A stretch of DNA of 15,664 nt, from positions 1 to 15,664 of the forward strand of contig JBBRLI010000040.1 in assembly GCA_038231455.1 (NCBI GenBank), read 5' to 3'. The position numbers and the translations under genes were made by a program. The notes beneath the pieces were generated by a model, which did no database searches, was not told the DNA's origin, and saw only the letters and a list, made by a program, of their open reading frames with translations. The stretch comes from Vulcanimicrobiales bacterium (GTDB lineage Bacteria > Vulcanimicrobiota > Vulcanimicrobiia > Vulcanimicrobiales > Vulcanimicrobiaceae). Positions 4,370 through 15,194 of this stretch are shown here, in pieces; the first letter of the stretch is position 1; each line of letters starts with the position of its first letter.

Positions 4370-4372
4370 ATC

Positions 4373-4480
4373 ATGACATTCGCGATGGGATTCAAGAAGA
4401 TGTCGACGGCTGCGGAGGCGCCACGCGTGGCGCTCGCCCCCCGTTGCGTCTCGAAGGGACGCAACTACTATGCCAGTTAA
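4373..4480 (+). CDS. Putative 35-aa bridging s[38 protein letters not shown]
   Basis: ATG 3 nt after the rplW stop. Open across the whole spacer; TAA 4478-4480 overlaps the rplB start by 11 nt. Translation is not proven. Confidence 0.4.
4416..4449 (-). repeat. Divergent partial inverted copy of the intergenic repeat
   Basis: The reverse complement acgcaacggggggcgagcgccacgcgtggcgcct aligns with copy 1 5376-5411 acgcagcggggggcgcgcagcgtgagcggagcgcct (16/18 identical over the first 18 nt, shared GCGCCT end). Confidence 0.5.
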
Positions 4481-5297
4481 AAAATATAAGCCGACTTCAG
4501 CCGGCCGACGCTTTATCACGACGATGGACTTCTCCGACCTCTCGAAGGTCGCGCCGGAACGTTCGCTCATCGAGGTCAAGAAGAAGCACAGCGGCCGCAA
4601 CAACAACGGACACATCACCGTTCGCCACAAGGGCGGCGGCTGGCGCAAGCAATATCGCATCATCGATTTTAAGCGCCAGAAAGATGCGATCCCGGCCAAG
4701 ATTGCGACGATCGAATACGATCCCAATCGTTCGGCTCGCATTGCGCTGCTCAATTATCGCGACGGCGAGAAACGCTACATCCTCGCGCCGGTTGGCGTGA
4801 AGATCGGCGACATTCTTGAGTCCGGTGAGAAAGCCGACATCAAGACCGGCAACTGCTTGCCGATCAAGAACATCCCGCTCGGTACGGTGATTCACAACAT
4901 CGAACTGCGCCCGGGTGAAGGCGGCAAGCTCGTGCGCTCGGCCGGTGGTTCGGCGCAGCTCATGGCCAAAGAAGGCGAATACGCCCAAGTGCGTATGCCC
5001 TCGGGCGAAGTGCGAAAGATCTTGATGGTCTGCCGCGCGACGATCGGCCAGCTCGGCAACGTCGAGCACGAAAACGAAGTGATCGGTAAAGCCGGACGTC
5101 AGCGCCACAAGGGCAAGCGTCCGTCGGTTCGCGGTATCGCGATGAACCCGGTCGACCATCCGCACGGCGGTGGTGAAGCGCGCTCGACTTCGGGCCGCCC
5201 GCCGACGACGCCGTGGGGCCAGATGACCATGGGCAAAAAGACCCGTCGCAACAAGCGCACGGCGTCGATGATCGTCAGAAAGCGTAATTCCAAGTGA
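4470..5297 (+). CDS. rplB: 50S ribosomal protein L2
   Basis: [45 protein letters not shown]. Confidence 0.99.
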
Positions 5298-5302
5298 GCA
5301 AT

Positions 5303-5416
5303 ATGGTGATGGAGCGAGCGCAGCAACATGAAGCCCGTGCCGCAATGAAAAATGCGAGCTCGATCTGGGGGCCCCACGCAGCGGGGGGCGCGCAGCGTGA
5401 GCGGAGCGCCTTCTAA
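5303..5416 (+). CDS. Putative 37-aa bridging s[40 protein letters not shown]
   Basis: ATG 5 nt after the rplB TGA; stop TAA 5414-5416 overlaps the rpsS ATG (TAATG). Confidence 0.5.
5305..5411 (+). repeat. Intergenic repeat copy 1 (rplB-rpsS)
   Basis: GGTGATGGAGCGAGCGCAG, then 29 nt variable (5324-5352), TGCGAGCTCG, CTGGGGGCCCCACGCAGCGGGGGGCGCGCAG, CGGAGCGC. Blocks shared with 10168-10273 and 13572-13683. Confidence 0.9.
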
Positions 5417-5691
5417 TGGGACGTTCGCTTAAAAAGGGTCCGTTCGTCGCGGACCATCTGCTTGTCAAAGTCGAGCGCATGAATGCATCGCGCGAGAAAC
5501 GCGTCATCAAGACGTGGAGCCGCGCTTCAACTATCGTTCCGGCGATGGTCGGGCATACGATTTCCGTCCACAACGGAAAAGCGCACATCCCGGTGTTCGT
5601 GACCGAGAACATGGTCGGGCACAAGCTCGGTGAGTTCTCGCCCACGCGCAACTTCCGTTCGCACGCCGGCGACAAGAGCTCGGTGAAGTAA
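5416..5691 (+). CDS. rpsS: 30S ribosomal protein S19
   Basis: [32 protein letters not shown]. Confidence 0.99.
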
Positions 5692-6194
5692 TGCAGATGC
5701 AAGAACGTACCGAAGCTGTCGCGCACCTCAAGTTCGCTCGCATGGGCCCGCGCAAACTGCGCCGTGTCGCCGATGCGATTCGCGGCAAGACGGTTCGCGA
5801 AGCCCTCGTGCTCCTCAAATTTGCCGGTGTTTTTGCCGCCGAGCCCATGGAAAAGTTGCTCCGTTCGGCCGTTGCCAACGCGGAAAACAACCACAACATG
5901 GACACGGAAGGCCTCTTCATCACGCGCATCACCGTTGACGGTGGTCCGGGTGGTGGCTTCACCAAGCGTCTGGATCCCCGCGCGCAAGGCCGCGCGGCAT
6001 TCAAACGTAAGCGCATGTCGCACGTCACGATCGCCGTGGGCGCAACGCCGCCGAAGCGTCTTGCACGTCAGCGTGCCGGCGCCTCGATTGCGATGAGCAC
6101 CACAACCTCACGCGGCGCACAAGTCGCCGCATCGAAACCAGCTGCCGCACCGCGTAAGAAGAAGGCCCCCACCAAACCGGAGGCCTCGGAGTAA
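5691..6194 (+). CDS. rplV: 50S ribosomal protein L22 with C-terminal extension
   Basis: [38 protein letters not shown]; Ala/Lys/Pro-rich tail. Confidence 0.97.
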
Positions 6195-6195
6195 T

Positions 6196-7305
<1,110 letters not shown>

Positions 7306-7317
7306 GAAACAGAAGCA

Positions 7318-7743
7318 ATGCTGACACCAAAACGAGTCAAATGGCGCCGCGTTCACCGCGGACGCATGACGGGCAAAGCCCAAACCGGAAACGCGCTGAC
7401 GTTCGGCGAGTTCGGTTTGCAGGCGCTCGAGCCGTGCTGGATGACCAACCGACAGATCGAAGCCGCCCGTATCGCCATGACTCGCCACATCAAGCGCGGC
7501 GGTAAGGTCTGGATCAAAATCTTCCCGGACAAGTCCGTTACGAAGAAGCCCGCGGAAACGCGCATGGGTTCCGGTAAAGGCAATCCCGAGGGTTGGGTCG
7601 CCGTGATTCACCCCGGCCGCGTCTTATTCGAGATCGCTGGCGTGCCGGAATCGGTCGCGAAGGAAGCCATGCGTCTCGCATCGGCCAAATTGCCGATCGG
7701 TACCAAGTTCATCTCGCGCGCAACCGATGGTATCGCCGTATGA
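7318..7743 (+). CDS. rplP: 50S ribosomal protein L16
   Basis: [37 protein letters not shown]. Confidence 0.99.
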
Positions 7744-7961
7744 AGAAGAACGATCTGCGCGCGCTGCGCGACCTGACGATCGCCGAGCTTGAAACGAAAG
7801 CGCGCGAAACCAAGGAAGAACTGTTCAACCTGCGCTTCTCACTGCGCACGGGCCACCTTTCGGATTTTTCGAAAGTGAAAGCCACCCGTCGTACGTTCGC
7901 GCAAATCCAGACTGCGATCAGCGAAAAGCGGATCGTCGAGGCACGTAATGGAGCAGCCTAA
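7740..7961 (+). CDS. rpmC: 50S ribosomal protein L29
   Basis: ATG 7740 (ATGA overlap with rplP); [26 protein letters not shown]; synteny. The ORF-track start at 7593 is too early. Confidence 0.95.
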
Positions 7962-8235
7962 CACCGCAGCGGCACCGGATGCCGCCCGCCACCGTCGTCG
8001 TATCAAACAGGGCCGCGTCAAGAGCGACAAGATGGATAAGACCATCGTCGTCGTGACCGAAACACGCGTTCCCCACCCGGTGTACAAGAAGATCGTCCGC
8101 AAGTCGGTCACCTTCAAAGCACACGATGAAGCCAACACCGCCGGAATCGGCGACTTGGTCCGCATTGCCGAGTGCCGCCCGATGTCGAAAGACAAACGCT
8201 GGCGCCTCGTCGAGATCGTCGAAAAGGCGAAGTAA
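7948..8235 (+). CDS. rpsQ: 30S ribosomal protein S17
   Basis: [38 protein letters not shown]. Confidence 0.98.
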
Positions 8236-8241
8236 GAGTAC

Positions 8242-8619
8242 ATGATCCAGCAAGAGACGCGACTCAAAGTCGCAGACAACTCCGGGGCACGCGAATTGCT
8301 CTGCATCCACGTCAGTGGCGGCAGCCGGCATCAGTATGCCCACGTCGGAGACATCATCGTCGGAACCGTGAAGAGCGCGATTCCGGGTGCTGCTGTGAAA
8401 AAGGGCCAGGTCGTGAAAGCGGTCGTGGTTCGTTGCAGCCAGCCGATGCGCCGTCCCGATGGCTCGATCATCAAGTTCGATGATAACGCGTGCGTGATCA
8501 TCAAAGGCGAAAAAGACAACCTCGACCCGCGCGGCACGCGCGTGTTCGGGCCCGTCTGCCGTGAACTCCGCGACCGCGGCTTCCTCAAGATCGCATCGCT
8601 CGCGCCGGAGGTGTTGTAA
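8242..8619 (+). CDS. rplN: 50S ribosomal protein L14
   Basis: [45 protein letters not shown]. Confidence 0.99.
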
Positions 8620-8972
8620 TGCCTCTCGCAGCGATCGCAAAACCGAACATCGTCAAAGGCGACACCGTCATGATCCGCCGCGGCCGTGAAAAGGGCAAAC
8701 GCGGAATCGTGAAGGCCGTGTTCCCCAAAGACGGTCAAGCGACGGTTGAGGGACTCAACGTCGTCAAGCGCCACACCAAGCAAGGTCAGGACGGCTCCAA
8801 GGCCGGCGGCATCTTCGAAAAAGAAGCCCCGCTCCCGATCTCGGCACTCCAGTACGTCTGCCCCAAGTGCAACGTGCCGGCGCGTATCAAAAAGAATGTC
8901 ACCGCCACGGGTTCGCAGCGCGTCTGCGGCAAGTGCGGCGAGCCGGCTGCTGAGTCGGCGAAGGATCGTTAG
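8619..8972 (+). CDS. rplX: 50S ribosomal protein L24
   Basis: KOW-like [39 protein letters not shown]...CGKC motif. Confidence 0.97.
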
Positions 8973-8974
8973 TC

Positions 8975-9544
8975 ATGGCAGAACGTCTTAGAGAAAAATA
9001 CCAGGCCACGGTCCGTCAGTCGATGACGGAGAAGTTCGGCTATAAGAATTTCCACATGGTTCCCAAGCTCGACAAAGTTGTCATCAACATGTCGGTCGGC
9101 GATGCCATCACGAATTCGAAGATCCTCGATGTCGCCGTGCGTGAACTCGAAGTGATTTCGGGTCAGAAGCCGATCATCACCAAGGCCAAGAAGTCGATCG
9201 CGGCATTCAAACTGCGCGAAGGCATGAACGTGGGCTGCAAAGTCACGCTTCGTGGCGAGCGCATGTACGTGTTCCTCGATAAACTCTTCAACATCGTGCT
9301 CCCGCGCATTCGCGACTTCCGCGGTCTCTCGCGTAAGTCGTTCGACGGTCGCGGCAACTACAACATGGGCCTCAAAGAGCAGTTGGTTTTCCCGGAAGTC
9401 AACTTCGATAAGGTCGAGAAAGCTCGCGGCATGGACATCGTCATCGTGACGACGGCCAAGACCGACGAAGAAGCGACGGAATTTCTCACGCAAATGGGCC
9501 TGCCGCTGCAGAAGCCCACGACTACGGCTGGAGCAACTGCGTAA
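8975..9544 (+). CDS. rplE: 50S ribosomal protein L5
   Basis: [46 protein letters not shown]. Confidence 0.99.
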
Positions 9545-9729
9545 TGGCGAAAACCGCCCTCGTCGAACAATCCAAGCATCCGCAAAAGTTTGCGGTGCGC
9601 AATCACAATCGCTGCAAGATTTGCGGACGTCCGCGTGGATATCTCCGCAAGTTTGCGATGTGCCGCATTTGTTTCCGCGAAAATGCGCATCGCGGTTTCG
9701 TTCCCGGTGTGACCAAGGCGTCTTGGTAA
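9544..9729 (+). CDS. rpsN: 30S ribosomal protein S14, short zinc-binding (type Z) form
   Basis: 61 aa, [26 protein letters not shown]. Confidence 0.98.
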
Positions 9730-9755
9730 CTGCCGAGAGTTAAAGGGAATATATT

Positions 9756-10157
9756 ATGGGCGTTATCACCGATCCGATCGCTGACATGTTGACCCGTATC
9801 CGCAACGCGAATACGGCCAACCACCAGACGGTCGACATTCCGGCCTCGAAGATGAAGAAGGCGGTCGCCGTCATCCTCAAAGACGAAGGCTTCATCACCG
9901 ACTTTGCGATGGTTTCCGAAGGGCCGCAAGGCACGCTTCGCGTCACCCTAAAGTACGGTCCGGAAAAAGAGAAAGTCATTACCAACTTGCGCCGGATCAG
10001 CCGGCCGGGTCTGCGCGTCTACACGACCAAAACGGAAATCCCGCGCGTTCTCGGTGGCCTTGGTCTTGTCATCATCTCAACTTCAAAGGGCATCATGTCG
10101 GGCAAGCGCGCGAAGCGCGAAGGCTTCGGCGGTGAAGTCCTCGCGTACGTGTGGTAA
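9756..10157 (+). CDS. rpsH: 30S ribosomal protein S8
   Basis: [40 protein letters not shown]. Confidence 0.99.
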
Positions 10158-10162
10158 GCGAG

Positions 10163-10279
10163 ATGCCGGTGATGGAGCGAGCCCAGTCAATTCTTCAGCT
10201 AAGCAACACGTTAGTTGCGAGCTCGTCCTGGGGGCCCCACGTAGTGGGGGGCGCGCAGGCTGGGCCGGAGCGCATTTAA
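10163..10279 (+). CDS. Putative 38-aa bridging sORF MPVMERAQSILQLSNTLVASSSWGPHVVGGAQAGPERI
   Basis: ATG 5 nt after the rpsH TAA; stop TAA 10277-10279, 1 nt before the rplF ATG (10281). Confidence 0.5.
   Translation: MPVMERAQSILQLSNTLVASSSWGPHVVGGAQAGPERI
10168..10273 (+). repeat. Intergenic repeat copy 2 (rpsH-rplF)
   Basis: GGTGATGGAGCGAGCCCAG, 29 nt variable (10187-10215), TGCGAGCTCG, CTGGGGGCCCCACGTAGTGGGGGGCGCGCAG, CGGAGCGC. Confidence 0.9.
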
Positions 10280-10280
10280 A

Positions 10281-10829
10281 ATGTCACGTATTGGTAAAGT
10301 ACCCGTCGCTGTTCCCGCTGGCGTTGATATCAACGTCAAGCCCGGATTCGTGCACGTCAAAGGCCCCAAGGGTGAACTCAACCAGCACATCCTCGATCAC
10401 GTCACCGTGACCGTTACCGATGGCCACGTGCAAGTCGATCGCAAGGGCGATGACAAACCGTCGCGCTCGGCGCACGGCCTCACGCGCACGCTGATCTCGA
10501 ACATGGTCGAAGGCGTCACCAAGGGCTTCCGCAAGAGCCTCGAGCTCCAAGGCGTCGGCTACCGCGTTGCCAAGGCCGGCGAGAAGATCAATCTGTCGCT
10601 TGGGTTCTCGCATCCGGTGAGCTACGATCCGCCCAAGGGCATCGCGTTTACCATCGAGGGCACGACGAAGATTCACGTCGATGGGATCGACAAACAGCAA
10701 GTCGGACAAGTTGCCGCTGAAATCCGCGACCTTCGTCCGCCCGAACCCTACAAGGGCAAAGGCGTTCGTTATGAAGGCGAAGTCGTGCGTAAGAAGATGG
10801 GCAAGGCCGGTAAGGCCGGGAAGAAATAA
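10281..10829 (+). CDS. rplF: 50S ribosomal protein L6
   Basis: [35 protein letters not shown]. Confidence 0.99.
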
Positions 10830-11197
10830 TGGCTCGTCAAGTATCGAAAAATATCTCGCGCGTCAAGCGCCATGGCCGTCTTCGCAAGAAGGTCATCGGC
10901 ACGACGGCCCGCCCGCGCCTGCAGATCTTCCGCTCGCTCCACCACATCTACGCAGCCGTGATCGACGACACGAAGGGTCACACCCTCGTCGCCGCGTCCA
11001 CGCGCGAGAAGTCGGTCGCAGGCGGCCTCGACTCGCGTACCAACATCGAAGCTGCCACCAAAATCGGCACGACGATCGCGGAAAAAGCCAAAGCCGCCGG
11101 CATCACCGCCGTCGTCTTCGATACCAGTGGTCTCAAGTATCACGGCCGCGTCGCAGCACTCGCTGCGGCCGCGCGTGAAACCGGTTTGGAGTTTTAG
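10829..11197 (+). CDS. rplR: 50S ribosomal protein L18
   Basis: [38 protein letters not shown]. Confidence 0.98.
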
Positions 11198-11200
11198 GCT

Positions 11201-11707
11201 ATGTACAATCGTGGTCGCGAACGCGACAACTCCGGTTTCGAAGAGACCGTGGTCCGCATCAACCGCGTTGCTAAAGTCGTCAAGGGCGGCAAACGCTTTA
11301 GCTTCAGCGCACTCGTCGTCGTCGGCGACCGCAAAGGCAAAGTGGGCTTCGCCATCGGCAAAGCGGGCGAAGTCCCCGAAGCCATTCGCAAGGGTGTGGA
11401 GCAGGCCCGCAAGGCCCTCGTCACCGTGCCGATGGTCGAACGCACGATCCCGCACGAAATCACCAAGCAAGTCGGCGCGGGCCGCGTGATGCTTAAGCCC
11501 GCCTCGCCCGGTACGGGCGTTATCGCCGGCGGCGCGATGCGCGCGGTGCTCGAACTCGCCGGCATACACGACATTCTTACGAAGTCGCTTGGAACCGCGA
11601 ATCCGATCAACGTCGTGTACGCGACGATCGAAGCCCTCAAATCGCTGCGGACCGCCGAGCAAGTCGCAGCCTTGCGCGGCAAAACGGTCTCGGAACTCTT
11701 TATTTAA
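11201..11707 (+). CDS. rpsE: 30S ribosomal protein S5
   Basis: [33 protein letters not shown]. Confidence 0.99.
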
Positions 11708-11709
11708 TT

Positions 11710-12273
11710 ATGGCAAAAGCAACAACGAAGAAGGCTTCGGCCTCAGCCTCGTCAGCCGCCGTCGCACCGATCGCCTCGGCGACCGGATCGCTTGTGACGC
11801 TTGCGGGTCTCAAACCCAATAGACATTCCCGTCCGAAGCGTACGCGCGTCGGCCGCGGACACGGTTCGGGCATGGTCAAGACCGGCGGCGAAGGCGGCAA
11901 AGGTCAGACCGTGCGTTCGGGCGGCGGTAAGGGACCTGCGTTCGAAGGCGGACAGACCCCGTGGGCCCGTCGTCTTCCGCAACAACGCGGTATTTCGCAG
12001 CGTGCACGCGACATCGGCCACTTCGGTCAGGTGTTCGCCGTGATCAACCTTGCGGATCTCGCCGACTGGGACACCTCGGTTGAAGTATCGCCGCAGTCGC
12101 TGAAGGCAGCAAAGAAACTCAAAGATCTTCGCGACGGCGTGAAGATTCTTGGCGGATCCAAGTCCGGCAAGTCGCTTCCGACCGGCCTGAAATTCCGCGA
12201 TATCGCCTTCTCATCGACGGCCCGCGAAGCACTCGCCGCCGCCGGTGCGAAATTCGAAGAGATCGAAGGTTAA
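11710..12273 (+). CDS. rplO: 50S ribosomal protein L15 with N-terminal Ala-rich extension
   Basis: RVGRGHGSGMVKTGGEGGKGQTVRSG, FEGGQTP, VINL, GVKILG, FS..AREAL.AAG. Confidence 0.96.
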   Translation: MAKATTKKASASASSAAVAPIASATGSLVTLAGLKPNRHSRPKRTRVGRGHGSGMVKTGGEGGKGQTVRSGGGKGPAFEGGQTPWARRLPQQRGISQRARDIGHFGQVFAVINLADLADWDTSVEVSPQSLKAAKKLKDLRDGVKILGGSKSGKSLPTGLKFRDIAFSSTAREALAAAGAKFEEIEG

Positions 12274-12279
12274 CTTCAC

Positions 12280-13569
12280 TTGCTGACAACGCTGCGCGCG
12301 GCGCTGCTCGTCCCGGACATCCGTAAACGCATCGGCTTCGTGTTCGCTGCGTTTGCGCTTTTCGTGTTCATGATCCACGTTCAGATCCCGAACGTGAACG
12401 CGCAAGTCTGGGAACGGCTCCTCGCACAGGGCACGTTCTATAACTTCCTTGGGTTCCTCTCGGGCGGAGCGCTTCAGCGCCTTTCCGTCATCGCGATGGG
12501 AATCACGCCGTACATCAACGCCAGTATCATCATGCAGCTGATGACCGTGGTCATCCCGCAGCTCGAAGAGATGGCGAAGAAAGGCGGCGAGGAAGGTCGC
12601 AAAAAGATCAGCCAGTACACGCGCTGGCTGACGATCGTGCTTGCCGTCGTGCAAGCAACGACCATGACGATCGCTATGAAGAACTCGGGCGTCTTCTACG
12701 ACACCTCGATCTTCTTCGTGCTCTACGTGATCGTGGCGATGGTCTCCGGTACGCTTTTCTTGATGTGGCTCGGCGAGCAGATCACGGACAAAGGCATCGG
12801 CAACGGTATCTCGCTGATCATTTTTGTCGGCATCGTGCTGCGCTTTCCCTCACAGCTGGGCAAGACGTTTCAGCTTGCGGGCAAGGGCGCCGAAGTCAAT
12901 TATCTTGGGCTCTTGCTCTTCATCGCGATCGCGTTGATCACCGTCGTCTCGATCGTCTTCATGTATCAAGGACAGCGCCGCATTCCGGTGCAGCAAGCGC
13001 GTCGCGTCGTCGGCCGTAAGATGTTCGCAGGTCGTAGTTCGTACATTCCGTTACGCCTCAACAACGCCGGCGTCATCTCGATCATTTTCGCGATCTCGAT
13101 TTTGCTCTTGCCGCAACAGGCGCTCTCGTGGTTCCAGCACGGCAACACGGGCCCGGGTTCACAAGTCTCGCTGTTCTTGCAGACCTACTTTGGTCCGAAC
13201 ACGTTCTTGTACAATCTCGTGTACTTCATCTTGGTCGTCGTGTTCACGTTCTTCTACTCGGCAATCGTCGTCAACACGCGCGACATCGCGGATAATTTGA
13301 AGAAGTCGGGTTCGTTCATCCCAGGCATCCGTCCGGGCCAGCCGACGGTCGATTATATCAATAAGATTCTGCTTCGTATCACGACGGCCGCCGCCGTGTA
13401 TCTCGGTCTGCTCGCCGTCTTGCCGTCGCTCCAGCGCGACCTCGGCGTCGGCCAGCTCTACATCGGCTCGACCTCGCTGCTCATCGTCGTCGGCGTGGCG
13501 CTCGACTCGATCACGCAAATCGAAGCGCGCCTGGCAATGCGCGACTACCGCGGTTTCATCAAAAAGTAA
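12280..13569 (+). CDS. secY: Preprotein translocase subunit SecY
   Basis: TTG start; multiple TM segments; [55 protein letters not shown]. Confidence 0.99.
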
Positions 13570-13710
13570 ATGGCGATGGAGCGAGCGCAGCAGATTGTCG
13601 CCTCTGCAGTCCGGCTCATTGCGAGCTCGGGCCGGGAGCTCCATGCTCTGCATGTGGAGCGCGGAGCCTTGGGCGGAGCGCCTTTCAGCGGCACGAGCAG
13701 ATCGTCATGA
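13570..13710 (+). CDS. Putative 46-aa bridging s[49 protein letters not shown]
   Basis: ATG immediately after the secY TAA; stop TGA 13708-13710 overlaps the adk ATG (ATGA). Confidence 0.5.
13572..13683 (+). repeat. Intergenic repeat copy 3 (secY-adk)
   Basis: GGCGATGGAGCGAGCGCAG, 29 nt variable (13591-13619), TGCGAGCTCG, a divergent hairpin GCTCCA..TGGAGC, CGGAGCGCCTT. Confidence 0.85.
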
Positions 13711-15154: not shown

Positions 15155-15194
15155 TTCGCTGCCGCTAAACTATCACCGATAAAGAGAAAGTGCT

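Follow-up and report, generated by a model that had tools for sequence, protein, structure and literature searches.

A dispersed repeat with covarying helices and a stop-to-start open reading frame in the ribosomal protein operon of an uncultured Vulcanimicrobiales bacterium

The stretch of DNA described here, hereafter the window, is the complete 15,664-base contig C40 of a draft genome (G000; 3.71 Mb in 106 contigs, 61% G+C, 93.7% complete) of a Vulcanimicrobiales bacterium. It carries a ribosomal protein operon in which three of the four longest intergenic spacers are copies of a dispersed repeat of ~115 nucleotides (nt), each spanned by a short open reading frame (sORF; ORF for open reading frames in general). 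The gene run from rplC to rpsM is unbroken, with secY, adk and map at their usual positions (genes named after NCBIfam), and its consecutive spacers measure -1, -1, 100, 118, -1, 1, 12, -4, -14, 6, -1, 2, -1, 26, 123, -1, 3, 2, 6, 137, -4 and 40 nt. Five of them fall outside the range from -14 to +26 nt, namely rplW-rplB (100 nt), rplB-rpsS (118 nt), rpsH-rplF (123 nt), secY-adk (137 nt) and map-rpmJ (40 nt). A first-pass annotation, made from the letters alone, had held that just four spacers reach about 100 nt, that the genes elsewhere are tightly coupled by overlaps, and that each long spacer is covered by an ORF. The spacer lengths bear out the first statement, the listed overlaps are found in the row of spacers, and four ORFs, each running from an ATG to a stop codon, indeed abut or overlap both neighbouring genes (Table 1).

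When the long spacers are numbered 1 to 4 from the 5′ end, spacers 2, 3 and 4 align with one another and spacer 1 does not. The suggestion that a repeat element sits in the operon thus holds for three of the four, while spacer 1 (rplW-rplB) is unrelated and has merely the same ORF layout; beyond weak matches of 30-40 nt, no further copy of it was found in G000 or in 60 relatives. Two of the three peptides encoded by the repeat copies begin with MVMERAQQ and MAMERAQQ, as expected from the start M-x-MERAQ that had been given for all three, but the third begins with MPVMERAQ, i.e. M-x-x-MERAQ. Their common 3′ block, CGGAGCGC, is read in three different frames, as had been noticed. The ORF listing contains earlier GTG starts, at 5294 and 10151, for two of the four ORFs, and a second open frame (10054-10410) also crosses spacer 3. 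None of the four peptides matches a Pfam family, and the 46-residue peptide of sORF 4 has no homologue among proteins of 25-81 amino acids.

Table 1. Long spacers, sORFs and repeat features of the window, and the same junctions in the congener G001
Feature	Position	Strand	Remarks
rplW-rplB spacer	4370..4469	+	100 nt; singleton sequence; two predicted hairpins; outside the repeat family
sORF 1	4373..4480	+	35 codons; ATG 3 nt past the rplW TAA; stop 11 nt into rplB
Type A repeat copy, rplB-rpsS spacer	5303..5415	+	nhmmer E=1.6e-24; alignment entry A2
sORF 2	5303..5416	+	37 codons; conserved ATG-GTG-ATG, 5 nt after the rplB TGA; TAATG with rpsS; phase 0
Helix P1, copy 2	5312..5361	+	GAGC...GCTC around the variable region; pair 12:59 covaries
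Helices P2 (CCCC..GGGG) and P3 (GGCGC..GCGCC), copy 2	5372..5410	+	covariation
Shine-Dalgarno-like GGAG, copy 2	5403-5406	+	9 nt ahead of the rpsS ATG
Type A repeat copy, rpsH-rplF spacer	10166..10280	+	nhmmer E=2.3e-23; GGAG at 10267-10270
sORF 3	10163..10279	+	38 codons; 5 nt after the rpsH TAA; TAA-A-ATG with rplF
Type A repeat copy, secY-adk spacer	13570..13687	+	nhmmer E=1.8e-23; 19-nt tail 13688-13706
sORF 4	13570..13710	+	46 codons; ATG 0 nt after the secY TAA; TGA overlaps the adk ATG (ATGA)
rplW-rplB junction			1 nt in G001 vs 100 nt in G000
rplB-rpsS junction			TAATG overlap in G001 vs 118 nt in G000
rpsH-rplF junction			6 nt (CGCCTG) in G001 vs 123 nt in G000
secY-adk junction			orthologous element in G001, 126/137 positions identical, vs 137 nt in G000

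An iterated nhmmer search detected 13 copies of the repeat in G000, which are 70-85% alike. Five of these are full-length (type A), including the three in the ribosomal operon, and the other eight (type B) share the 3′ half alone, their 5′ half being unlike that of type A. Among bacteria and archaea represented by one genome per species, the 3′-half pattern matched at least 120 stretches; of the 80 loci listed, 62 are titled Eremiobacterota (Vulcanimicrobiota, WPS-2, Baltobacteraceae, Elarobacter and similar), eight carry the full element under other titles, and ten match by chance. Complete copies are present on contigs titled Limnocylindria or Binatia (L065, L094, L115), which may mean that these contigs are mis-binned. 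A covariance model of type B (R1), scanned against 151 genomes drawn from the phylum Eremiobacterota (WPS-2), matched in 48 of the 71 genomes of the window's own family (f1) and in none of 79 genomes from 20 other families, with up to 25 or more scored copies per genome. At the Rfam gathering score there was no match in the window, nor in eight loci (81,397 bases) with the remaining copies.

Type A starts with ATG-GTG-ATG-GA(C/G)-CGAGCGCAGCAG, followed by ~28 nt that are barely conserved and then by GTTGCGAG(G/C)TCGG; its start motif, GGTGATGG, contains a TGA overlapping an ATG. Type B starts with ATG-TTG-TT. In both types a helix, P1, precedes a hairpin, P2 (CCCCACGC-loop-GCGTGGGG), and a helix, P3 (GGCGC...GCGCC), with a small inner hairpin in which C-G is replaced by U-A in 6 of 36 copies. 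The outer P1 pair of type A (12:59) is C-G in 27, G-C in 18 and broken in one of 46 copies, and 94.5% of the cells of the type A alignment are paired, compared with 31-56% when the partner columns are slid; the inner register of P1 (columns 17-22 with 51-56) is 84% paired and shows no compensatory change. In type B the sequence of P1 varies freely with pairing retained, and both-sided changes occur in 12 of the 24 predicted pairs. A GGAG sits just 5′ of the 3′ strand of P3 in both types, and the element ends in an A/T-rich tail (e.g. TTTAGA, TTTAAA or TTCAAA) to which the start codon of a gene is joined, so placed that the TAA or TAG of the tail, or an NTGA overlap, closes the sORF at the downstream start.

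Several variants of this architecture were encountered. In L031, L061, L066 and L074 a type A variant has the P1 strands in swapped order (GTTGCGAGGCCGG...GGGCCGAGCGC), and tandem arrays of two or more copies are present in L060, L033/L043, L118 and L167. The ORF of the first copy in L060 continues in frame into the second, and in the relative G006 a single ORF spans a tandem array of 289 nt. In G000, short tandem units of another repeat (GCCCTCAGGC...AACCGGCA[CT]GCCAC) are found downstream of certain type B copies (from C7:109453 and from C3:83509), and two inverted type B copies ~170 nt apart occupy one intergenic region (C7:33790-34191).

The element is found nearly always between genes of its own orientation. 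A relaxed version of the 3′ motif gave 144 matches, ~17 of them spurious, and in 83 of the 144 a start codon opening at least 60 codons follows within the next 2-15 nt. By rough gene calls, both flanking genes lie on the strand of the element for 52 copies and both on the opposite strand for five; the neighbours that could be named include atpH-atpA, argR-argG, a DnaJ-like gene, rpmJ and rplF. At the 5′ end, the stop codon of the upstream ORF lies -1 to 14 nt before the second ATG in 24 of the 32 type A copies with a credible upstream ORF (as read from a table of the copies), and it often overlaps the first ATG or is the TGA within GGTGATGG itself. Some copies continue the reading frame of the upstream gene, such as that of a nitrogenase-like (BchN-type) ORF on contig C8. 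There (L001 3741-6973) two nitrogenase-like oxidoreductase genes stand next to each other, the second with a protochlorophyllide-reductase C-terminal domain (BchN/BchB-like), and the first ORF crosses a type A element and ends with ATGA on the second gene; the BchN/BchB-like pair points to chlorophyll synthesis genes.

Within the window, the open frames alone are suggestive and constitute weak evidence. If a bridge is defined as an ORF whose start lies -4 to +6 nt from the stop of the upstream gene and whose own stop is no more than 12 nt away from the next start, dinucleotide shuffles of the whole spacers yield one in 10%, 7.6%, 1.7% and 12% of the trials for spacers 1 to 4, respectively. Since three of the spacers are copies of one repeat, they are moreover not independent, and the case must come from other copies and other genomes.

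Stop codons are unevenly distributed over the frames of these other copies. For 48 distinct type A copies, with the frame set by the conserved ATG, the variable region contains 2, 13 and 9 stops in frames 0, +1 and +2, and the whole elements contain 5, 18 and 15; of the five copies with an in-frame stop, four have no gene start after them (again by reading the table). For type B, where the nearest ATG upstream of P1 sets the frame, the 17 copies with a downstream start contain 1, 20 and 13 stops; 16 of the 17 are open in the ATG frame, as against 5 and 8 in the other two frames, and in all 16 this frame ends -4 to +5 from the next start. In six type B copies without a downstream start the corresponding counts are 3, 4 and 2.

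The position of the stop codon is likewise informative. The length of the element varies, and the ATG frame arrives at the junction with the next gene in any of the three phases; depending on the phase, the stop used is TAG or TAA, TAA or TAATG, or an NTGA that overlaps the start codon, and where the phase misses TAG or TAA the next gene starts with NTGA. In this manner 45 of 48 copies close the ATG frame after P3 and no later than the fourth base of the next gene, whereas permuting the phases gives a mean of 23.3 (standard deviation 2.95; maximum 35 in 20000 permutations; P<5e-5). Sixty further model matches from 11 genomes provided a second set of 51 new elements, in which the 22 type B copies with a downstream start contain 9, 21 and 22 stops by frame under the ATG rule, and in which 14 of the 22 stop at the junction, compared with a permutation mean of 8.9 (P=0.008), an effect weaker than in the first set.

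A test that does not depend on the choice of start codon gave the same picture. Frames that stop in the junction were compared with the remaining frames, and were open across the element in 78 of 89 cases as against 70 of 133 in the first set (P=2.4e-8; one copy from an unpublished genome is left out) and in 29 of 38 as against 24 of 58 in the second (P=8.5e-4). A spanning frame that stops in the junction is present in 70 of 74 copies of the first set and in 25 of 32 of the second. In addition, among 27 ribosomal-operon spacers of at least 40 nt, taken with homology-supported starts from the window and the loci of 20 relatives, 17 are bridged, whereas 4.95 would be expected from shuffles and none of 200000 simulations reached 17. 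Some of the bridged spacers have sequences unrelated to the repeat: G015 and G002 have one between rplW and rplB, G006 has one of 42 nt between rplB and rpsS, and both G006 and G014 have one between secY and adk. Even an antisense copy, in G025, is spanned by a frame that overlaps secY as ATGA and adk as GTGA. Because each orthologous or homologous spacer enters these counts as a case of its own, the P values overstate independence.

The proposal of the first-pass annotation that selection acts on the frame from stop to start, and not on the peptide, is thus supported by comparison, through the depletion of stops, the stop that follows the phase and the bridged operon spacers; what it could draw from the window is weak, and the second set is weaker than the first. 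By the sequences compared, what is kept is a start codon at the upstream stop, an open frame, and a stop codon at the downstream start, the last two only if a gene follows.

These data also bear on the question whether the sORFs encode functional micro-proteins, so that the repeat would be a small gene family. The conserved N-terminus, M-V-M-(D/E)-R-A-Q-Q, and the retention of the start codon in most copies are what such a family would show. However, the middle of the peptide is unconserved, the 3′ module is read in phases 1, 2 and 0 in 22, 8 and 1 type A copies, so that no peptide is conserved there, and compensatory base changes in the helices alter the encoded residues. With no Pfam match, with no homologue of the 46-residue peptide among proteins of 25-81 amino acids, and with some copies fused in frame to the upstream gene (as in the nitrogenase-like ORF on C8), we regard a gene family of this kind as highly improbable.

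Close relatives differ in the spacers that they carry. In a congener (G001), the ribosomal proteins of which are 95-100% identical (DNA identity 95.2% for rplB and 94.1% for secY), only the secY-adk junction carries the element (Table 1); the two orthologous copies there have CCCC/GGGG in one and CTCC/GGAG in the other as strands of P2, i.e. a C-G pair changed to U-A. Contigs of other sequencing runs were compared at a likeness of at least 88%, and provide evidence of presence only. The six letters CGCCTG join rpsH to rplF (10157>10281) in runs X2, X3 and X17, a 4-letter joint connects rplB and rpsS (5290>5414) in X2, and a 3-letter, element-free joint connects secY and adk (13562>13707) in X17 and X18, and all four of these runs have spacer 1 ungapped. 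X17 and X18 are RNA-library contigs that cover parts of the operon of relatives, including rplW-spacer-rplB, and likewise speak to presence only. In 19 relatives the same junctions mostly measure -4 to +20 nt, with long spacers occurring sporadically. Sense-strand members of the family are found between rpsH and rplF in G006 (a tandem pair), between rplB and rpsS in G017, between rplD and rplW in G012, between rplR and rpsE in G025, and before rpmJ in G008, G010 and G013, with a weaker match (E=0.023) before rpmJ in G014. The rplW-rplB junctions of G012, G015 and G002 (L042, L050, L053), which represent three genera, hold a different common element of 120-274 nt that starts with TTCGCATGCATC... 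and is spanned by an ORF.

Judging from the filled and empty junctions in G001 and in the other runs, the spacers have been inserted or lost precisely from stop codon to start codon and within a short time, so that the elements come and go between close relatives. With copies in G000 as divergent as stated above, the elements may transpose, be exchanged by recombination between relatives or be lost precisely. No transposase stands beside the copies inspected (the neighbours are argB, argF and argR on contig C11 and nitrogenase-like subunits on C8), and a search for the Y1 (IS200/RAYT-type) transposase, PF01797, gave no match in G000, 93.7% complete as it is, and matches in six of 14 control genomes. 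The consensus begins with ATGGTGATGGA... and finishes with ...GGAGCGCCTTTAGA, which do not form a terminal inverted repeat. When filled and empty junctions were compared, neither a target duplication nor flanking direct repeats were seen, and CGCCTG at rpsH-rplF is replaced outright. We also considered that the variable stretch of type A might act as a guide that pairs with, or copies, flanking DNA; at a crude level this was rejected, as the longest complementary match within 150 nt upstream and downstream averages 6.09 and 5.93 in 44 copies and 5.97 and 6.11 in mismatched pairs.

Based on the evidence collected so far, we consider it likely that the structured repeat in spacers 2-4 has a ribosome-relay sORF, by which ribosomes would be carried across the insertion; this is the simplest reading, and that of the first-pass annotation. 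A ribosome that ends the upstream gene would restart on the sORF, melt P1 to P3 in passing, and stop at the next start codon, where it would reinitiate or leave the site unfolded for a new ribosome. Despite an insertion of 100-140 nt, translation would then stay coupled and the mRNA covered by ribosomes, and the sequence of the peptide would be irrelevant. Spacer 1 is a different, single-copy insertion with the same ORF layout. P3 and its inner hairpin enclose the GGAG and lie 5-7 nt upstream of the start codon. If left untranslated, the element would therefore tend to mask the region of the start, and a ribosome on the sORF would unfold it and terminate on the start codon. Coupling through RNA unfolding and coupling through reinitiation have both been described in the parts of the review literature drawn upon here, and both would fit the element (PMC12548453).

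A number of points weigh against the relay. With the 12-nt ends of the spacers kept and their interior shuffled, the frame is open in 39-67% of the trials, and 66% and 55% of the antisense-strand frames are open across the element in the first and second set, i.e. open frames are common by composition. The copies descend from a consensus that already held the ORF, and counts over copies and over orthologous loci therefore overstate independence. The first set was chosen by an exact 3′ motif and may thus favour well-kept copies; 19 of the 42 type B copies in it, as well as 14 type B and four untyped of the 51 elements in the second, have no ATG by the rule and are left out of the ATG tests, and in the second set just 13 of 22 copies are complete bridges by that rule. 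Single-sequence folds of the four spacers are no better than those of shuffles (z = -1.1, +0.8, -1.0 and -0.9), so that the case for structure comes from covariation only, and the distance of 9-11 nt from the GGAG to the start is at the upper end for a Shine-Dalgarno sequence, and is 28 nt in spacer 4. Finally, the hosts are uncultured bacteria, and the relay is read from sequence.

Some of these points would be accommodated if the element were a structured RNA (or single-stranded DNA) module that might signal processing, stability or its own mobility, or bind a protein, with the ORF a by-product of G+C content and common descent. The covarying helices, the strong preference for the sense orientation, the high baseline of open frames in antisense strands and shuffled interiors, and the presence of copies at the same pre-rpmJ junction in several genera are all consistent with such a module. 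It does not explain, however, why stops are scarce in one particular frame of a stretch that is not conserved, why the stop follows the phase, why copies with no gene after them lose the frame bias, and why unrelated spacers and the antisense copy are bridged. We regard it as a rather unlikely alternative.

The fold might also act as an attenuator or tunable brake, its helices terminating transcription or blocking the next start while the ORF sets the throughput and so tunes the stoichiometry of the products. The overlap of the GGAG with the 3′ strand of P3, by which a folded element would hide the start region, and the retention of elements at some junctions across genera agree with such a role. 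Yet the window contains 21 terminator-like sites, where 20.7 are expected, and none of them falls in a spacer on the + strand; no ligand-binding family was matched in Rfam; and the presence and absence of the element between near-identical operons of essential genes argue against a needed regulator. With no terminator-like site in the spacers, the attenuation alternative offered in the first-pass annotation gains nothing, and we judge an attenuator or tunable brake to be improbable.

One may further speculate, though we think it rather unlikely, that the element is a movable cassette in the manner of a 'bicistronic design', the fold of which hides the next start unless a ribosome has just read the sORF, and which is used and reshuffled to set the strength of coupling. 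Bacteria of the window's family would then use and reshuffle it in ribosomal and other operons, making it more than a tolerated parasite. As ATG-GTG-ATG holds an overlapping TGA, the start motif might catch ribosomes terminating in any frame, and the cassette would land on, or be exchanged at, stop-start junctions without inverted repeats, target duplication or a known transposase.

Returning to the relay, the sORF probably lets ribosomes cross the insertion much as has been proposed for MIRUs (mycobacterial interspersed repetitive units), and the idea itself is not new, MIRUs having been described likewise in the passages available. According to a passage of a 2025 review of translational coupling citing Supply et al. 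1997, MIRUs are seemingly mobile and insert at start codons, their ORF being coupled to the gene with a -4 spacing, which likely minimises the impact of insertion (PMC12548453). In a passage of a 2011 review they are elements of 40-100 bp that occur 40-50 times per genome, show both filled and empty sites, have tetranucleotide direct repeats, and carry an ORF overlapping the adjacent genes with its ends (PMC3184786). Going by these passages, the present element is like MIRUs in that (i) it is a short repeat dispersed tens of times per genome, in operons between co-oriented genes, (ii) filled and empty sites occur among relatives, as in G001, which is without spacers 1-3, and in the empty joints of X2, X3, X17 and X18, and (iii) the ends of its ORF overlap neighbouring genes, which is read as a coupling that renders insertion harmless.

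The host phylum is a different one, however, and the likeness is one of kind and not of compared sequences; with hosts that are Eremiobacterota by title (62 of the 80 loci listed), membership in the MIRU family by descent is unlikely. When set against the MIRU passages, the present element is also longer (~115 nt), and differs in its four to five covarying helices, its variable core and its Shine-Dalgarno-like motif. Its stop lies -10 to +1 from the start (with five copies at -13, -10, -8 or -7), in contrast to the fixed -4 reported for MIRUs. Flanking direct repeats, as reported there for MIRUs, were not seen at its junctions, tandem arrays are exceptional, and coupling motifs are present at both ends together with a stop that shifts with the phase.

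Likenesses to other known systems are more limited. The Neisseria REP2 element, as far as the consulted passage goes, shares the absence of terminal inverted repeats, internal stem-loops and a ribosome-binding site directly upstream of many genes, but is described as having a promoter and as providing an ATG that is fused to the gene (PMC3184786). The present element lies within operons, its own ORF ends in a stop, and no promoter was found in the element. Like ERIC and Correia elements, it is a small intergenic repeat; these are non-coding, fold as RNA, are co-transcribed and are sometimes fused to ORFs. The same likeness extends to MITEs and REP/BIME elements, as portrayed in part of a review (PMC3184786). 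MITEs differ in that the present element shows neither terminal inverted repeats nor a target duplication, and REP/REPIN elements in that the cognate RAYT (Y1) transposase was not found in G000. In synthetic bicistronic designs and natural short ORFs that deliver ribosomes, a short leader ORF likewise reaches up to or into the next start and, when translated, opens the structure around it (PMC12548453, in part), and mgtQ, between mgtC and mgtB of Salmonella, is a short leader ORF that opens the structure at a start site, although it is said, in the portion of the article used, to act by aborting translation (PMC8092293). Both, as described there, are single loci or engineered parts, whereas the present element is a dispersed repeat that comes and goes. 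A literature search, with supplementary files outside it, retrieved no description of this Eremiobacterota repeat, and for repeats with a coupling ORF it retrieved the MIRU passages only.

Apart from the spacers, the operon has some features of its own. In the window and in the congener infA is missing between map and rpmJ, where the spacer (15155-15194) measures 40 nt; in most relatives examined this 'spacer' is 266-425 nt long and encodes an IF-1-like ORF. There is no rpsJ ahead of rplC, and the region 695-2608 instead encodes a phosphonate-type ABC binding protein, an ABC ATPase and an acylphosphatase-like ORF. At 2643-2671 there is a site that resembles a promoter (TTGACA-17-TATTCT with TG). 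The products of rpsC (6196-7305, 369 amino acids), rplV (5691-6194, 167 amino acids) and rplO (11710-12273, 187 amino acids) have long extensions beyond the family models, and no rpmD is present between rpsE and rplO.

MIRUs are the one case for which survival of a repeat within an operon has been put down to ribosomes being taken across it, and the literature searched contains no earlier comparative test of this idea across many copies. The present repeat constitutes a second, probably unrelated family, from an uncultured phylum, for which the evidence from sequence is that the frame stays open only in copies followed by a gene and that the stop codon moves with the reading phase. It is of practical concern for annotation that the ORFs of 35-46 codons, and the C-terminal 'extensions' that result from fusion to the element, will be inconsistently called or missed in genomes of the family. 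The element also provides a natural system in which to study the reach of termination-reinitiation, the passage of ribosomes versus RNA structure between cistrons, and the tolerance of essential operons to insertion.

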